A program made the translations under genes and the position numbers. Source: Felixounavirus AN17P8. Taken from it: a stretch of DNA of 64,000 nucleotides. Positions 25,789 through 60,975 of the stretch are shown piece by piece. The stretch lies in the sequence record OZ035742.1. One strand, written 5' to 3'. The notes beneath the pieces are model-generated. The model worked only from the letters and a program-made list of their open reading frames with translations, did not search any database and had not been told where the DNA came from. The first letter of the stretch is position 1; each line of letters begins with the position of its first letter.

Positions 25789-26148
25789 TTATGGGAACAG
25801 ACACTTGATGTCATCGTTTTTAAAAACAAAACTTGTGTAGTTATAACCGTCAACATCCAGCCAAACAGCCTGAACATCTACACCATCAAGATTCTGGTAA
25901 AGCTCTTTGATGAAGTGGTCTTTTACAATCTGACTGCTAGTTGTTTCCAGCTTAATGTTCGAGATTGCTGAACCTACAGCCATATAACCCATGACACGTT
26001 TCTTTTCAGTATGCTTAATCTTACCATCTTTGTAAGACATAATGAGATTGGAAAGAATCTTTACACCATAATACTTTTCAAGGTGAGTAGGTACACCATA
26101 AAAGCCTAATGCGAAGTTTTCAGAGTGGATAATGTTTTCACGTTTCAT
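25789..26148 (-). CDS. hypothetical protein
   Basis: 119 aa ORF. Confidence 0.35.
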   Translation of the reverse strand: MKRENIIHSENFALGFYGVPTHLEKYYGVKILSNLIMSYKDGKIKHTEKKRVMGYMAVGSAISNIKLETTSSQIVKDHFIKELYQNLDGVDVQAVWLDVDGYNYTSFVFKNDDIKCLFP

Positions 26149-26149
26149 A

Positions 26150-26479
26150 TTAGTCTGCCAACCTTAAATTGAAATTAACACCAAATTTTTCACATACTTC
26201 CAACATATACTCAAGGGAGACATTACCAGTGAGGTGGATTATGTTGGATACACGAGCCTGAGAGATACCACAAATTTTAGCAACTTGCTCTTGAGAAAGA
26301 CCTCTGGATTTAATCTCTCTCTTAAAACGATGTGCAACGAAGTCTCTCATTTCGTCTACATCCATTGGACAAATATAACTCTCCATTTCAGCCTCTCTAT
26401 CAGCCTCCCAATCATCTTGTGGAGCATAAGGGTCAAAAACTTCATTCATCTTTCTTCTTCCGTTTGCGTGAAGTGTCAA
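26150..26479 (-). CDS. putative HTH DNA-binding protein
   Basis: 109 aa; C-terminal segment LSQEQVAKICGISQARVSNIIHL resembles an XRE-type helix-turn-helix. Confidence 0.4.
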   Translation of the reverse strand: MTLHANGRRKMNEVFDPYAPQDDWEADREAEMESYICPMDVDEMRDFVAHRFKREIKSRGLSQEQVAKICGISQARVSNIIHLTGNVSLEYMLEVCEKFGVNFNLRLAD

Positions 26480-26654
26480 TTAATGAATCTATGTTTGTAG
26501 CCCTAACCTTTTCACGTTCATCGTTAAGATAATCATCAAGAGCCTTTTCAATCTGTGAATCATCTTGACAGATAACTGTAAAGACTGTAAAGCCGTCTGT
26601 ATCGTCAATTATCTTACCATAACCGCTTCTGGGATGTAACTTTTTAAGAGCCAT
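26442..26654 (-). CDS. hypothetical protein
   Basis: 70 aa ORF overlapping downstream gene start. Confidence 0.3.
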   Translation of the reverse strand: MALKKLHPRSGYGKIIDDTDGFTVFTVICQDDSQIEKALDDYLNDEREKVRATNIDSLIDTSRKRKKKDE

Positions 26655-26655
26655 A

Positions 26656-27039
26656 TCAAATACCTGTGCAGCTTCTGTTTTCTAAGAAATACTCCACACC
26701 ATACATAGCTTTTTGCATCAAATCTTCTTTAAACTGGATACGATGGTTGAGCATAGCCTGTACATCAATATCATCATGGTGCTTTTCTTTAATATTTGCA
26801 GATTGCAGGAAATACTCTGCAAGAACACGATATTGATAGTCAGTTACCTTATCAGTCATCTCTGTTAAAGACTCTTCAGAGATTGGTTTAAGTAGCTCAC
26901 CATTCGCTAGAGCAACACCTTTAACAATCTGGCAAGTGTCTTCTGGAACACCTGATAAATCCACATTTGGAAGTTCTGTTGCACTGACTGGTAAATTCAT
27001 TGCCATAACCATTGCAGCAGCTAATAAAATCTTTTTCAT
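26656..27039 (-). CDS. secreted/periplasmic protein (hypothetical)
   Basis: 127 aa with N-terminal signal peptide MKKILLAAAMVMAMNLPVSA. Confidence 0.4.
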   Translation of the reverse strand: MKKILLAAAMVMAMNLPVSATELPNVDLSGVPEDTCQIVKGVALANGELLKPISEESLTEMTDKVTDYQYRVLAEYFLQSANIKEKHHDDIDVQAMLNHRIQFKEDLMQKAMYGVEYFLENRSCTGI

Positions 27040-27259
27040 AATGACCTCAAAGTTATATTAAATTTTGTATTACATTGAGTATAAAAATAAGCTATAACAC
27101 CTGACTTGTCAACAGATTTTATAGCTTATTTGGCAGATTTTTTATAAGGCTACTGCCATCCTTCCATACCAAACCTCACCTGACCTCGCCTAACCCTACC
27201 TTACTCCACCATACAGCACCTTATTAAAACACCCTGTTTAAAGACCTTTTAAAAAGGTA

Positions 27260-27390
27260 AGTCTCATTTTAATGTAGCTGAGACTAACTACCCATACCTC
27301 ACCCTACCAGACCCTACCAGACCAGACCTTACCCTACCAGACCCTACCGAACATCACTTAAAAACCCTCTTAGAAGACTCTTAAGTGATG
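27260..27390. repeat. composite structured non-coding element, copy A
   Basis: hairpin 1 (agtctc / loop attttaatgtagct / gagact), conserved box aactacccatacctcacc, C+A-rich tract with 10-11 nt periodic ccctaccagac units, hairpin 2 (catcacttaa / 19-nt loop / ttaagtgatg). Confidence 0.7.
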
Positions 27391-27391
27391 T

Positions 27392-27535
27392 AATCGAATT
27401 TTAATGTAGCTCCGATTAACTACCCATACCTCACCTCACCCAACCATACCATGCCTTGCCAGACCGCACCTTACCTCATTAAAAGACCCTCTTAAAAGAC
27501 CTTTTAAAAAGGAGCCTCCGAAGAGGCTACCTAGT
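27392..27535. repeat. composite structured non-coding element, copy B
   Basis: hairpin 1 with altered but still pairing stem (aatcg / same loop / cgatt), identical box aactacccatacctcacc, C+A-rich tract, 3' end replaced by terminator hairpin. Confidence 0.65.
27501..27530 (-). terminator. rho-independent terminator (minus strand)
   Basis: on minus strand: hairpin agcctc-ttcg-gaggct followed by TTTTT, immediately downstream of the 27540 stop. Confidence 0.55.
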
Positions 27536-27539
27536 CAAC

Positions 27540-27980
27540 TTAGAAAGGTTTTCTACGTTGCTTGTTAATGTTAGCTTTCATAGCAGCTAAATGGTTTTGC
27601 TGTTCAATCAGTCGTGAACGTTCTTGATGACTAAGCGCCATAGTGTTCACATTCTCAATTGCTTGAGTGGCTTGCTTTAAAGCTCGACCAATCTTACCAG
27701 ACATTTTGCGTTTTGCAATAGTTGCTTGATGCTTAGGTTCAACCACACGATAACCAACACCCATTGAAGCAACCAGATAAATCTTCTCTTCTTTAAGAAG
27801 CTTTTCAATAAACTTCTCAAGTCGGTTTAGACGTGTAAGTGCATAAGCCTTCATTTCATCTTCGTACTTAACAATGTCACCTTGATAAGTTGGCTTCACA
27901 ATACCTAAGAAGGTGTCCATCTCGGAATGTGATACAGTGTCGCCGTAACTAAACTTTGCTGCTAATGCTTTTGTATTCAT
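27540..27980 (-). CDS. hypothetical protein
   Basis: 146 aa ORF; basic C-terminus. Confidence 0.4.
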   Translation of the reverse strand: MNTKALAAKFSYGDTVSHSEMDTFLGIVKPTYQGDIVKYEDEMKAYALTRLNRLEKFIEKLLKEEKIYLVASMGVGYRVVEPKHQATIAKRKMSGKIGRALKQATQAIENVNTMALSHQERSRLIEQQNHLAAMKANINKQRRKPF

Positions 27981-27982
27981 AA

Positions 27983-28588
<606 letters not shown>

Positions 28589-28646
28589 TTAGTTGATTGT
28601 TAAGTTGTTTGTAAAGAACCCTCAACAGAAGACTCTTTAGAAACTT

Positions 28647-28783
28647 GGTAGATTTTTAACGTGGCTACTACCATCCACCCATACCTCACCTAACAACACC
28701 TAACAACACAAAACTACACCCCACACCACCGCACCACACCAAACATCACTTAAAAACCTTCTTAGAAGACTCTTAAGTGATGC
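28647..28783. repeat. composite structured non-coding element, copy C
   Basis: hairpin 1 with third stem variant (ggtag / loop atttttaacgtggcta / ctacc), box cccatacctcacc, nearly G-free C+A tract, hairpin 2 almost identical to copy A (one substitution). Confidence 0.65.
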
Positions 28784-28847
28784 TGGTGAGTACCCGTTGG
28801 TTTATGCTGCTCAGTATACTCACCAAATTTTCTATGTCAACAACTTT

Positions 28848-29987
28848 TTATTCGTAGTCTCGAATAACTAACCCGACAGGGAACTGTAAAGACCCCTTAC
28901 GAGTCATCTTCTGGAACTGAACCGTTAAAGGCTTCCCGATAAACTCTTCAGGATGCTCAGCAAGATACTGTTTCTTCTCATGAGTAGTCTTCCATGAGAC
29001 ATCTACAAAGACGTTAGGGAGGGTCTCTACAACGAACTTGCCATGACCACGCTTATCAGTCTTTACACCAGTCACTTTAAACTCTTCAGTGTGCATCTTC
29101 TTGTGTTTAATCAAGAAGTATGAACGGTGACAACACTCATAGAAGGAGTCTTCAGAGATTGAACGGTACATTGCACCTTCAAACTTAGCTTCAACCCACT
29201 TATCATGAGCTTCATCAAACTCTTCCCAAGAATTTACACGACGAGATTTAACAGGAACAACTCTACAGCCGTCTCTAAAGTCATTCAATGGTGAAGTCTC
29301 AATAATATCTCTACGCTCAGGCCACGTCTTAGTACTGTCACAGATATCGTACCAGTAAAACTTGAGTAGGTGTCGGTCAGGATTGTCTTCATTTTTAATC
29401 ATGGAGACAATATCTTCTAAGTCCTGCCCATGAGCATAAATCTCACCATCAAATTCATCAACATCTTTGTGGAGCCTTAACATTGCCATAATGTCAGGTA
29501 TTAGCTCAGTAGGAATTTTATAAACAGTATTCTCACGAGAGTATGCTGTAAATACACTACCGATGCTCAAGTGTCTTGAAATTCTACAACGGACACCATC
29601 AAGTTTTGGTTGAGCATCAGCAGGGAACTTCAGGTACTTCGCATGACTAACCTTTGCAGCATCATGAGCAAGCTGTACACCTACCTTCTCAGTATTCTGT
29701 GCAGACTCTTTTGTGTAAGCATAACCTTTACGGTCAACTTGCTTTTTATACTTAGCAGCAACTTCAAAGAGAGCTTGCTGTTCAGCGTTACGCTCATTCT
29801 TTTTACCGATGTTTTTAGGTTCTGCTGTATACTCTTCAAACATCATCTTGCCATTTTCTTTACCATAGGTTGTAATAACTTTGTCACCTACAGCAACGCA
29901 TGACCAGACGTTGAAAGAGCCATCTTTATTTTGTTTGTATAGGATTGTCATTTTATTCCTCTGAGTGATACCAAGTGTTGCAAGCAT
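28848..29987 (-). CDS. ATP-dependent DNA ligase
   Basis: 379 aa; KxDG adenylation motif PKLDGVRC; size and context similar to T7/T4-type ligases. Confidence 0.6.
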   Translation of the reverse strand: MLATLGITQRNKMTILYKQNKDGSFNVWSCVAVGDKVITTYGKENGKMMFEEYTAEPKNIGKKNERNAEQQALFEVAAKYKKQVDRKGYAYTKESAQNTEKVGVQLAHDAAKVSHAKYLKFPADAQPKLDGVRCRISRHLSIGSVFTAYSRENTVYKIPTELIPDIMAMLRLHKDVDEFDGEIYAHGQDLEDIVSMIKNEDNPDRHLLKFYWYDICDSTKTWPERRDIIETSPLNDFRDGCRVVPVKSRRVNSWEEFDEAHDKWVEAKFEGAMYRSISEDSFYECCHRSYFLIKHKKMHTEEFKVTGVKTDKRGHGKFVVETLPNVFVDVSWKTTHEKKQYLAEHPEEFIGKPLTVQFQKMTRKGSLQFPVGLVIRDYE

Positions 29988-30144
29988 TACATGCGTAAAG
30001 CTCTAAGTCATTTTTATCCGGTTTATGAAAACAGTTTGCTCCGCAGTGGCAACGAAATGGCTTTCCACCAACTGTCAGGACGAAGGACTGAATCTTTCCA
30101 TCAGGAGTTCGTACAGCATTTTTATGCTTATCTTCTTTGTTCAT
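29953..30144 (-). CDS. small zinc-ribbon protein (hypothetical)
   Basis: 63 aa with CHCGANC...CNACN cysteine pairs. Confidence 0.3.
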   Translation of the reverse strand: MNKEDKHKNAVRTPDGKIQSFVLTVGGKPFRCHCGANCFHKPDKNDLELYACNACNTWYHSEE

Positions 30145-59216: not shown

Positions 59217-60326
59217 ATGACTACTAAAACTAAAGCACAGATTGACGCAGAAATTTACAAACTGGTTAAAGAGGGTAAGCTGACTAAAACAGCTATTGCA
59301 CAGAAATTTAACACCTCAACACGTTCAGTTGGTCGTGCTGTAGAGCGTCATGAAGCAACCTTAAAAGGTAAGAAAAAGGTAGCTTCTAAACCAGCTACGA
59401 AGACTTTGAAGCAAGTTGCTAAATCAGTTAAAAAGAAAGCTGGAAAACCAGTTGAAAATGTTGTTAAAGAGACTGTACAAAAGGCTCCGGTAAATAAACT
59501 ACACGAAGCTATGCAGAATGGTAACCAGATTGAGTATATGATTACTGGCGATTCTATTATCATGACTTTTGGTGCAGATTCTGAAATCGTTGAATCTACC
59601 CATCCGAACTACAAAGAAATCGTAATGGCTGTTGTATCCGGTGAGTATAAGAAAGCTTTCGAACTGATGAACATTCGTAAGTCTATCGAAAACTTCACTC
59701 AGGGTGCTATCACCATCAAAGGTGACAAGTTATTCTATGGTGCTGTTGAGATGCGTTCTACTCTGGTTGACCGTATTCTTCACATGATGAAGACTGGAGA
59801 TAAGGGTTTTGAACGCCTTGTGATGTTCTTCGAAAAACTGATGGAAAACCCATCTAAAGATTCTGTAGAACAACTTTGGGGATTCGTATCTCACCTTGAT
59901 GTTGAAATTGATGAAGAAGGCTACATCATTGGTTGGAAGAAAGTCTCTACTCGTGAAGGCAAGCTGGTTGACTCCCACACCTACAGAGTTCCTAATGATT
60001 TGGGTAACATTGTAGAAATGCCACGTTGGATGGTTGATAATAACCGTAACGTGACTTGCTCTCAAGGTCTTCACGTTGGTGCTTGGGATTACGTTCGTTG
60101 CTTCTCAGGCGACACAATCCTGAAGGTTCGTGTCCATCCACGAGACGTTGTATCCGTACCAACTGATTACAACGATATGAAGATGCGCTCGTCTCGTTAT
60201 GAAGTTGCAGCAATCGTTGATAATCAACGTAAAGTGCTGAAAGCATGGGATGGCAAGACTGAAGCTTTACATGTCATCGTCGGTACTGCTGGAGAACTTA
60301 TCTCCCAACGTAAACGTGAAATCTAA
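59217..60326 (+). CDS. rIIB: rIIB-like protein
   Basis: 369 aa; adjacency to rIIA-like gene; segments RSTLVDRIL, VEMPRWMVDNNRNVTCSQGLHV, VRVHPRDVVSVPTDYNDMKMR resemble T4 rIIB as recalled from memory. Confidence 0.5.
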   Translation: MTTKTKAQIDAEIYKLVKEGKLTKTAIAQKFNTSTRSVGRAVERHEATLKGKKKVASKPATKTLKQVAKSVKKKAGKPVENVVKETVQKAPVNKLHEAMQNGNQIEYMITGDSIIMTFGADSEIVESTHPNYKEIVMAVVSGEYKKAFELMNIRKSIENFTQGAITIKGDKLFYGAVEMRSTLVDRILHMMKTGDKGFERLVMFFEKLMENPSKDSVEQLWGFVSHLDVEIDEEGYIIGWKKVSTREGKLVDSHTYRVPNDLGNIVEMPRWMVDNNRNVTCSQGLHVGAWDYVRCFSGDTILKVRVHPRDVVSVPTDYNDMKMRSSRYEVAAIVDNQRKVLKAWDGKTEALHVIVGTAGELISQRKREI

Positions 60327-60426: not shown

Positions 60427-60975
60427 ATGAAGAAATTGATTCTAGGTTTGTGCTTAATGTTTACAGCACACTTATCTTATGCAGTTGACTGCCCAGAGCT
60501 ATCAATTAGCCAAAAAGTAAACATGTTAAAAGCTTACCAGTATGGTGAGAATAACATGGGTAAAGGTTGGGGTATCACTCTAGCTGCTATAGCCTTACAA
60601 GAGTCAGAGTTAGGTCTAAAGGTAGAGAATAAAAAGACCCATGACTATGGTATTTTCCAGAATCACTTGAAGACTGTTGTAAAGCGTAACAAAATCAGTC
60701 CTAATGTGGCTAAAAAGAAACTCTTAAAAGACTTTGACTATGCTGCGAAGGAAACGCACAAAGAACTTGAGTTTTGGACAAAGGTACATGGTCAGCCAAA
60801 GTCAAAGAAGACTTTACAAAAAGTTTTAGCGTCATATAATGCTGGGTATTCGTACAGAATCCCTAAAGCTAAGAAATATTCTCAAGATGTTTATAACAAT
60901 ATGAAAGTAATTGCTCAATGTGAATTTGCAACAAACATTTCTAAGGTAAACCATGAAAAAATTAAGAAAGTCTGA
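60427..60975 (+). CDS. lytic transglycosylase-like endolysin with signal peptide
   Basis: 182 aa; signal peptide MKKLILGLCLMFTAHLSYA; SLT-like catalytic region AIALQESELG and SYNAGYSY; perfect TATAAT 30 nt upstream. Confidence 0.55.
   Translation: MKKLILGLCLMFTAHLSYAVDCPELSISQKVNMLKAYQYGENNMGKGWGITLAAIALQESELGLKVENKKTHDYGIFQNHLKTVVKRNKISPNVAKKKLLKDFDYAAKETHKELEFWTKVHGQPKSKKTLQKVLASYNAGYSYRIPKAKKYSQDVYNNMKVIAQCEFATNISKVNHEKIKKV

Follow-up and report, generated by a model that had tools for sequence, protein, structure and literature searches.

VIPR (Viral Interference Programmable Repeat) systems, which are phage-encoded, CRISPR-like and silence DNA under RNA guidance, were first described in two 2026 preprints (bioRxiv 10.64898/2026.04.26.720920 and 10.64898/2026.04.26.720927). 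Vipr was reported there as a minimal RAMP protein related to Cas5, Cas6 and Cas7, with an RRM core, a G-loop and a thumb, and its guide RNAs (vrRNAs) as 9-16 GGY/NN (YNNGG) repeats followed by an invariable tail, which in the SUSP1 clade carries a pseudoknot. In phage SUSP1, one vrRNA gene upstream and three downstream of the vipr-vap1 gene pair were expressed as ~100-nt RNAs (small RNA sequencing) that co-purified with Vipr (pull-down). One Vipr protomer was assigned to each repeat, sequestering GGY and presenting NN; the NN pairs read double-stranded DNA with every third base skipped, a protein-held R-loop triplex forms, and transcription is silenced without a protospacer-adjacent motif, as shown for SUSP1 by green fluorescent protein and phage assays. 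The natural target of the SUSP1 clade was given as a satellite phage, and VIPR was proposed to predate CRISPR. Here, a 64,000-nt stretch of Felixounavirus AN17P8 (OZ035742.1; "the window" throughout) was analysed, in which the repeat-bearing region at positions 27040-27540 very probably encodes guide RNAs of a SUSP1-clade VIPR system, type II. The feature is real, well defined and nearly identical to the model member of a system that has already been described.

The locus was compared with SUSP1 type II VIPR, with SUSP1 parsed by the same rules, and resembled it in Vipr (98% identical), in promoter, in GGYNN units, in the arrangement of one upstream and three downstream vrRNAs, in satellite target class and in the 1-nt skip rule. 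Alpha and delta tails were identical, the delta tail of the upstream vrRNA being the tail of SUSP1 vrRNA1. The two loci differed in their NN guide sequences, in the order of downstream tails (gamma, beta, alpha in the window; beta, beta, alpha in SUSP1) and in host genus (Felixounavirus in the window; Suspvirus for SUSP1). Class 1 CRISPR-Cas backbones (Cas7/Csm3 filaments on CRISPR RNA) are alike in their RAMP fold with thumb and G-loop, in the fixed length of guide bound by each protomer, with periodic base flipping, and in the conserved, structured handle that caps the variable guide. In contrast to class 1 CRISPR-Cas, the window locus has no CRISPR repeat-spacer array, cas1/cas2 or other cas genes, and VIPR is phage-borne, aimed at other mobile elements and guided noncontiguously, each 5 nt of RNA using two bases to read two out of three in the DNA. 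Membership in CRISPR-Cas was considered and rejected: the units are 5 nt long with 2-nt variable parts, there are only two protein genes, neither of them matched in Pfam above the gathering score, and nothing but the RAMP fold is shared.

Layout and anatomy of the vrRNA genes

Positions 26000-30000 of the window were searched by megablast and matched 259 phage records, nearly all of them Felixounavirus or other Ounavirinae; the window comes from a coliphage of the Felix O1 type (Felixounavirus). The gap at 27040-27540 was 100% identical to Escherichia phage VpaE1_ev035. Because every gene between ~23.5 and 34.5 kb lies on the minus strand, the gap needs to be read on that strand, and the functional strand of the repeat elements is minus, as for the surrounding genes. 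The original prediction, made from the letters of the window, had described a gap with two tandem elements and a third copy elsewhere. The repeats are real (composite elements of ~122-133 nt, family D1, with a further copy near 28647-28783), but the gap holds three of them, the one at 27128-27220 having been overlooked, and it lies downstream of a two-gene cassette and is functionally part of the same system. The C+A-rich tract that was pointed out does have a strong strand asymmetry, although its functional sense is the G-rich minus strand. In minus-strand order the locus consists of promoter P1, one vrRNA gene, vipr, vap1, a terminator and three vrRNA genes, so that the vrRNA genes together flank the vipr-vap1 cassette:

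28681-28745, minus strand: repeat tract of the upstream vrRNA, 13 GGYNN units, 5 of them with T or A replacing the first G
28643-28680, minus strand: 3' tail of the upstream vrRNA, 38 nt, delta type, hairpin TGGTAG/CTACCA plus pseudoknot GTGG/CCAC
27983-28570, minus strand: vipr, encoding a 195-aa RAMP-like (Cas7-like) protein predicted, by homology to SUSP1 Vipr, to polymerise on GGY repeats
27540-27980, minus strand: vap1, a 146-aa VIPR accessory gene, its role taken from the preprints
27388-27475, minus strand: downstream vrRNA 1, 10 GGYNN units (27426-27475) and gamma-type tail (27388-27425)
27256-27348, minus strand: downstream vrRNA 2, 11 GGYNN units (27294-27348) and beta-type tail (27256-27293)
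27128-27220, minus strand: downstream vrRNA 3, 11 GGYNN units (27166-27220) and alpha-type tail (27128-27165)

Tract and tail together measured 88-103 nt in the four window vrRNAs. The 88-kb genome was scanned for CC every 5 nt, and tracts were found only in the gaps at 27.1-27.5 kb and 28.6-28.8 kb (shuffles, 0/20).

Each copy, on the minus strand, is built from a spacer module, 10-13 GGYNN units (13, 10, 11 and 11 in the window tracts) and a 38-nt tail. The period of 10-11 nt proposed earlier was not borne out: the true period is 5 nt (GGYNN), and the periods of 10, 15 and 30 nt in the copy at 27258-27390 are present because units were duplicated locally. Base composition was tabulated over 62 unique guides of 7-18 units from 30 related loci. 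G2 and Y3 were each conserved at 100% (Y3 as T in 90% and as C in 10%) and G1 at 76%; N4 and N5 were near-random, with C at position 4 in just 15%. The distance between flanking modules varied among genomes by exact 5-nt steps (52, 57, 62 ... 107). The box CCATACCTCACC, formerly called invariant, was exact in three copies, where it corresponds to the final GGYNN units and the start of the 3' tail, but it differs in the copy at 27128-27220.

Hairpin 1 of the original prediction lies within the 38-nt tail and was recovered as described, with a conserved loop and stems that are different yet complementary; the loop motif TTTTAAYGTRGCT occurred exactly three times, only here. The tail supports a 6-7-bp hairpin and a 4-bp pseudoknot (columns 3-6 with 17-20), the latter formed by AAGG/CCTT, GTGG/CCAC or GTAG/CTAC in different tails. 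Over 24 distinct tails, 89% of cells paired, compared with 28-50% when the partners were slid, and 9 of 11 tail pairs had changed on both sides. The compensatory changes claimed for the stems are thus real, but the stems fall into four position-specific paralogous types that are kept across genomes, and few independent events therefore underlie the covariation. Rfam 15 was searched at the gathering threshold with 0 matches across the whole window, and vrRNAs are so far absent from Rfam. Among the roles put forward at the outset, a structured small RNA was essentially the right one, the SUSP1 homologues being, in the preprints, ~100-nt vrRNAs with a structured 3' tail. An iteron-like protein-binding array came close in one respect, since one Vipr protomer is reported there for each GGY, though on RNA and not on DNA iterons.

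Vipr and the predicted targets of its guides

The vipr product was identical at 191 of 195 residues (98%; E 6e-128) to PDB entry 36pp, "SUSP1 Vipr protein", which was also the single strong match in a profile search of the PDB. The product belongs to a ~190-aa family. It was modelled with AlphaFold2 (predicted local distance difference test score, pLDDT, 94.8), and the top PDB matches of the model in Foldseek were Csm3/Cas7 subunits; a RAMP/Cas7-like fold is predicted. In the structure paper, contacts to GGY, to the skipped base and to the non-target strand are assigned to residues that were present in the window protein (H17, K33, R39, E71, M72, K82, G87, K88, R138, C173, D177, W178 and R179), and the sole substitution among these contact residues was T175 to V. 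The family corresponds to phrog_4652 and has no Pfam family; its homologues, >500 in number, are spread over phages and prophages from many phyla. The vap1 product (phrog_5926), for which Pfam gave only a chance-level, sub-threshold match, was 99% identical to its positional counterpart in SUSP2, and the vipr-vap1 pairing was also found in 20 of 30 related loci. A Vipr at least 90% identical to the window protein was encoded in 117 phage records of the collection. In public records vipr and vap genes are labelled as hypothetical proteins, and pieces of vrRNAs are tagged merely as "repeat_region" or "DR_4" (EU877232.1, wV8, 59418-59475 and 60811-60868; MN850647, MN850636 and others).

The link between protein and repeat was found independently of the preprints. 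IMG/VR was scanned for (GGTNN)7GGT (chance expectation ~0.05, a rough estimate made for this work), and simple pentamer microsatellites were set aside before complex tracts were counted. Among the matches listed, at least 60 loci from unrelated viral contigs had complex tracts with variable NN, often in tandem arrays with a fixed terminal unit. Flanking open reading frames (ORFs) were clustered, and one ~190-aa family adjoined the tract on the same strand in 33 of 60 of these loci; it includes ORF 27983-28585 (vipr) of the window. The decisive clue to identity was this adjacent gene and not the repeat itself. A 14-mer search of IMG/VR for the box returned almost exclusively chance matches. The elements are not described in the genome papers of Felix O1, VpaE1 and UAB_Phi87 or in the Bas63 gene-essentiality preprint, and the literature on Felix O1 transcriptomics and intergenic repeats gave nothing productive.

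Larger arrays were seen in the same database. Seven head-to-tail vrRNAs ending GGTAAGGCTAAT stand right after a vipr-family gene (L157 4602-5070, L259 6113-6498), at least 10 vrRNAs end in GGCAG in L209 (3232-4394), and L260 (2603-12927) carries at least 14 tracts, the longest of 47 units, over 12 kb; L164 (2216-3406) is another VIPR-like array from the (GGTNN)7GGT scan. A second protein family of ~165-176 aa neighbours arrays in 8 loci among the matches listed and may be another accessory gene.

The locus was compared by blastn with 5,426 complete E. coli genomes, of which 121 chromosomes matched, only over the vrRNA tract and tail. Five match regions were examined. Four of them contained a 12-kb island encoding a serine recombinase together with baseplate, tape-measure and HNH products, and L272, the fifth, was a remnant disrupted by an insertion sequence. 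The islands span 4863-16934 in L271 and 2250-13700 in L273, are also present in L274 and L275, and are integrated at several chromosomal sites. A single vrRNA gene is present in each of the five satellite loci, none of which had a detectable Vipr or Vap. Lacking vipr and vap, a satellite would need the Vipr of its helper phage for its guide. The satellite vrRNA has a delta-like tail, including the variant stem TGTCG/CGAC. The 183-aa ORF of the satellite proved not to be homologous to Vipr.

The four window guides were searched against the five satellite copies at their NN positions with a 1-nt skip, with 100 unit-order shuffles for each guide. A target threshold of 80% of NN positions was taken from the preprints. 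Results, one guide per line, were as follows:

Guide 27426-27475: best NN match 18/20; shuffles as good, 0/100; skips of 0, 2 and 3 null
Guide 27166-27220: best NN match 20/22; shuffles as good, 0/100; skips of 0, 2 and 3 null
Guide 27294-27348: best NN match 18/24; shuffles as good, 8/100; no convincing match
Guide 28681-28745: best NN match 18/26; shuffles as good, 44/100; no convincing match

Guide 27166-27220 matches a satellite gene with the skipped bases at codon position 3. The two predicted xNN target sites are L275 8400-8429 (E. coli VTB97585v) and L273 9044-9076 (E. coli S40). Of 49 unique guides from vipr-carrying relatives, 28 reached at least 80% NN match on just the five satellite copies. 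When vipr-carrying and vipr-less loci were taken together, the skipped base was codon position 3 in 19 of 22 in-gene sites of at least 80%, and both strands were hit. Self-targets of at least 80% were absent from the 64-kb window, where the best self match covered 67-75% of NN positions. The published targeting rule was thus reproduced on these sequences.

By homology to SUSP1, each vrRNA (~90-100 nt: 10-13 GGYNN units and a 38-nt tail with hairpin and pseudoknot) would be coated by Vipr, each protomer flipping out and holding GGY while the variable N bases, two per unit, are presented. Taken together, these NN pairs would bind double-stranded DNA in a gapped register of two paired bases and one skipped, and the resulting protein-held R-loop triplex would block transcription of competing elements. 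The natural target would be the 12-kb phage satellite found in E. coli chromosomes, which presumably parasitises these phages. Assignment to VIPR would turn a set of hypothetical proteins and unexplained repeats into a defined weapon between viruses, carried by Felix O1-like phages, which are widely used in therapy and biocontrol; two concrete predicted targets in the E. coli satellite follow from it, and reading of sequence was enough to spot such arrays.

Alternative explanations

Several points weigh against assignment of the region to a VIPR system. The primary VIPR literature consists of two preprints from one laboratory, and expression, ribonucleoprotein assembly and silencing in this phage are predicted from those papers by analogy. 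Thermodynamic folding of the four window vrRNAs was no better than that of shuffles (z +1.1 to -1.4), so that the structure of the tail rests on covariation among only about four tail types; the absent free-energy signal fits a guide held open by protein. Half of the window guides (two of four) had no convincing target in the five satellite copies. The promoter scan predicted no sigma-70 promoter for the downstream trio, which is placed after the terminator. In the upstream vrRNA the first base is not G in 5 of 13 units, and this vrRNA may for that reason work poorly.

The last of these points bears on the possibility that the array is VIPR-derived but partly decayed, with at least one vrRNA (especially 28643-28745) an inactive relic. 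That vrRNA has no target match in addition to its missing first Gs, and eroded single elements, with GGY fractions near 0.55 and without targets, persist in Felix O1 and in other relatives that have no vipr. However, conservation of the first G reaches only 76% even where guides have excellent targets, internal degeneracy in working vrRNAs is reported in the preprints, and missing targets are weak evidence because only five satellite variants were searched. Partial decay is considered unlikely.

A replication origin or priming hotspot had been proposed in the original prediction. In the form considered here, the G-rich strand would offer T7-type primase pentamers (GGGTC/TGGTC/GTGTC) to the gp4-like primase-helicase, perhaps after an R-loop has formed downstream of P1. 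As at T7-type primase sites and transcription-activated phage origins, some GGGTC/TGGTC pentamers lie on a G-rich strand downstream of a promoter, several of them in the copy at 27294-27348. In the upstream gap a strong promoter stands before a G-rich, C-poor untranslated tract, a geometry that favours R-loops, as at T4, ColE1 and mitochondrial origins. The clustering of pentamers did not hold beyond one tract of four (3, 0, 0 and 0 pentamers; 0.05 per unit over 748 units from relatives), and those that occur fall on hypervariable NN positions and are conserved neither between copies nor among relatives. A vrRNA copy number of 1-5 and length steps of 5 nt among near-identical genomes are unlike an origin, similar tracts in unrelated phages co-occur with a RAMP-like protein, the window tracts being linked to such a protein and not to replication genes, and the guides find matches in foreign DNA when a specific gapped code is applied. 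An origin at this site is highly improbable.

Equally little credence is given to a cis-acting RNA leader for the downstream operon, whether a TRAP-like attenuator, a nut/BoxA-like antitermination site or a set of two-tetrad G-quadruplexes. The tracts do stand in sense orientation between P1 and the next genes, the spacer core GGTCTTTAA is loosely BoxA-like (a reading made for this work), and 10-13 units of a triplet and a two-base spacer resemble TRAP sites. In the Bacillus TRAP-trp leader (11 (G/U)AG triplets with 2-3-nt spacers), as in VIPR, a protein oligomer reads a triplet every 5 nt over ~55-65 nt of single-stranded RNA. TRAP is, however, a closed ring that attenuates in cis and whose spacers are uninformative, whereas VIPR is a helical filament in which the spacers are the information, and TRAP and Vipr have no protein homology. 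Target information held at the NN positions would be needless for a cis-regulator, and the satellites have a single such RNA without a downstream operon of that kind. The published SUSP1 data are of discrete ~100-nt RNAs acting in trans on DNA.

An RfaH ops-like pause site (with 10/12 positions of the alpha tail agreeing with GGCGGTAGCGTG, again a reading made here), lambda nut/BoxA-BoxB-like antitermination, a TRAP-like attenuator, an R-loop origin, two-tetrad G-quadruplexes, a Chi-like or RecA-preferred GT-rich recombination hotspot, a C-rich-strand rut site for antisense transcripts and a mobile repeat resembling a miniature inverted-repeat transposable element were each dropped, as they explain neither the information content of NN nor the linkage to a RAMP-like protein.

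Array turnover and transcription signals

The 30 related loci obey a fixed module grammar in which P1 comes first and is followed by 1-5 units. The nearest database genome, VpaE1_ev035 (LR699048.1, L125 16436-16862), is identical to the window over the downstream gap and has two vrRNAs in the upstream gap where the window has one, with guides that differ from window guide 28681-28745; arrays therefore turn over by gain or loss of whole units and by 5-nt steps among near-identical phages. In two-thirds of related genomes the two-gene cassette is embedded among the units. The remaining 10 of 30 Felixounavirus loci are without vipr and vap and retain 1-2 vrRNA genes behind the same promoter P1 (one unit in L126, L128, L129, L135 and L145; two units in L131, L137, L142, L146 and L151). 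No Vipr or Vap homologue was found in the complete Felix O1 genome (tblastn, E>0.3), which retains one eroded vrRNA-like element (NC_005282 57753-57817, minus strand; L126 3001-3132), and no close Vipr was found in eight other vipr-less near-complete contigs. UAB_Phi87 is among the phages without vipr.

Single-unit vipr-less relics are eroded (GGY fraction ~0.55) and without a target. Guides of some two-unit vipr-less phages match the satellite at 87-91% of NN positions. It is conceivable, and put forward only tentatively, that vrRNA genes circulate and function without a vipr of their own, such orphan guides being loaded in trans onto Vipr from a co-infecting phage or helper; they may alternatively be relics of cassette loss. 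If loading in trans occurs, guides would be a resource that can be shared or hijacked when phages and satellites are in conflict. Of the present material, only the orphan guides may go beyond the content of the preprints, as far as their available text extends.

Promoters, terminator and spacer modules of the window locus were placed as follows:

28813-28840, minus strand: promoter P1, sigma-70-type, TTGACA-16-TATACT, 11/12, preceding the first vrRNA gene and the vipr-vap1 pair; from the promoter scan
27513-27528, minus strand: terminator-like hairpin after vap1, AGCCTC-TTCG-GAGGCT plus T run, intrinsic type, conserved in the module grammar
28744-28782, minus strand: spacer module "h2" (hairpin 2), a 10-bp inverted repeat around GAGTCTTCTAAGARGGTTT, preceding the repeat tract
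27352-27390, minus strand: spacer module "h2" (hairpin 2), second copy
27478-27512, minus strand: spacer module "c", CCTTTTTAAAAGG plus GTCTTTTAAGAGGGTCTTTTAAT
27224-27257, minus strand: spacer module "c", second copy
28610-28640, minus strand: spacer core, GAGTCTTCTGTTGAGGGTTCTTTACAA, in an additional copy that immediately precedes the ribosome-binding site of vipr
27084-27131, minus strand: promoter P2 for the next gene (ORF 26656-27039), TTGACA-17-TATTTT, its -35 carried by inverted repeat I3

In SUSP1 and in each of the 30 related loci, P1 was kept at a distance of 30 nt ahead of the first spacer. Hairpin 2, reported from the start, was confirmed as CATCACTTAA-N19-TTAAGTGATG, with 2 occurrences and 0 expected; the h2 module possibly serves 5' processing or marks a boundary. 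The non-h2 spacer type reads CCTTTTTAAAAGG...TTTTAAT. Modules h2 and c alternate between vrRNAs and have a common core, GTCTTYTAAGAGGGTYTTTTAA, of which 28610-28640 is a fifth copy. The spacer module is fixed by the type of tail that precedes it: gamma is followed by h2, and beta or the terminator by c.

In all loci P2 follows the alpha tail at a distance of 19 nt; it is probably a neighbour, outside the VIPR system. A palindrome with 19-nt arms (AAATAAGCTATAAAATCTG TTGACA ... CAGGTGTTATAGCTTATTT, 89% complementary) at 27085-27131 encloses the -35 of P2 (27107-27112) and looks like an operator. This candidate operator could possibly serve the small "transcriptional regulator" gene at 26150-26479, two genes further downstream.

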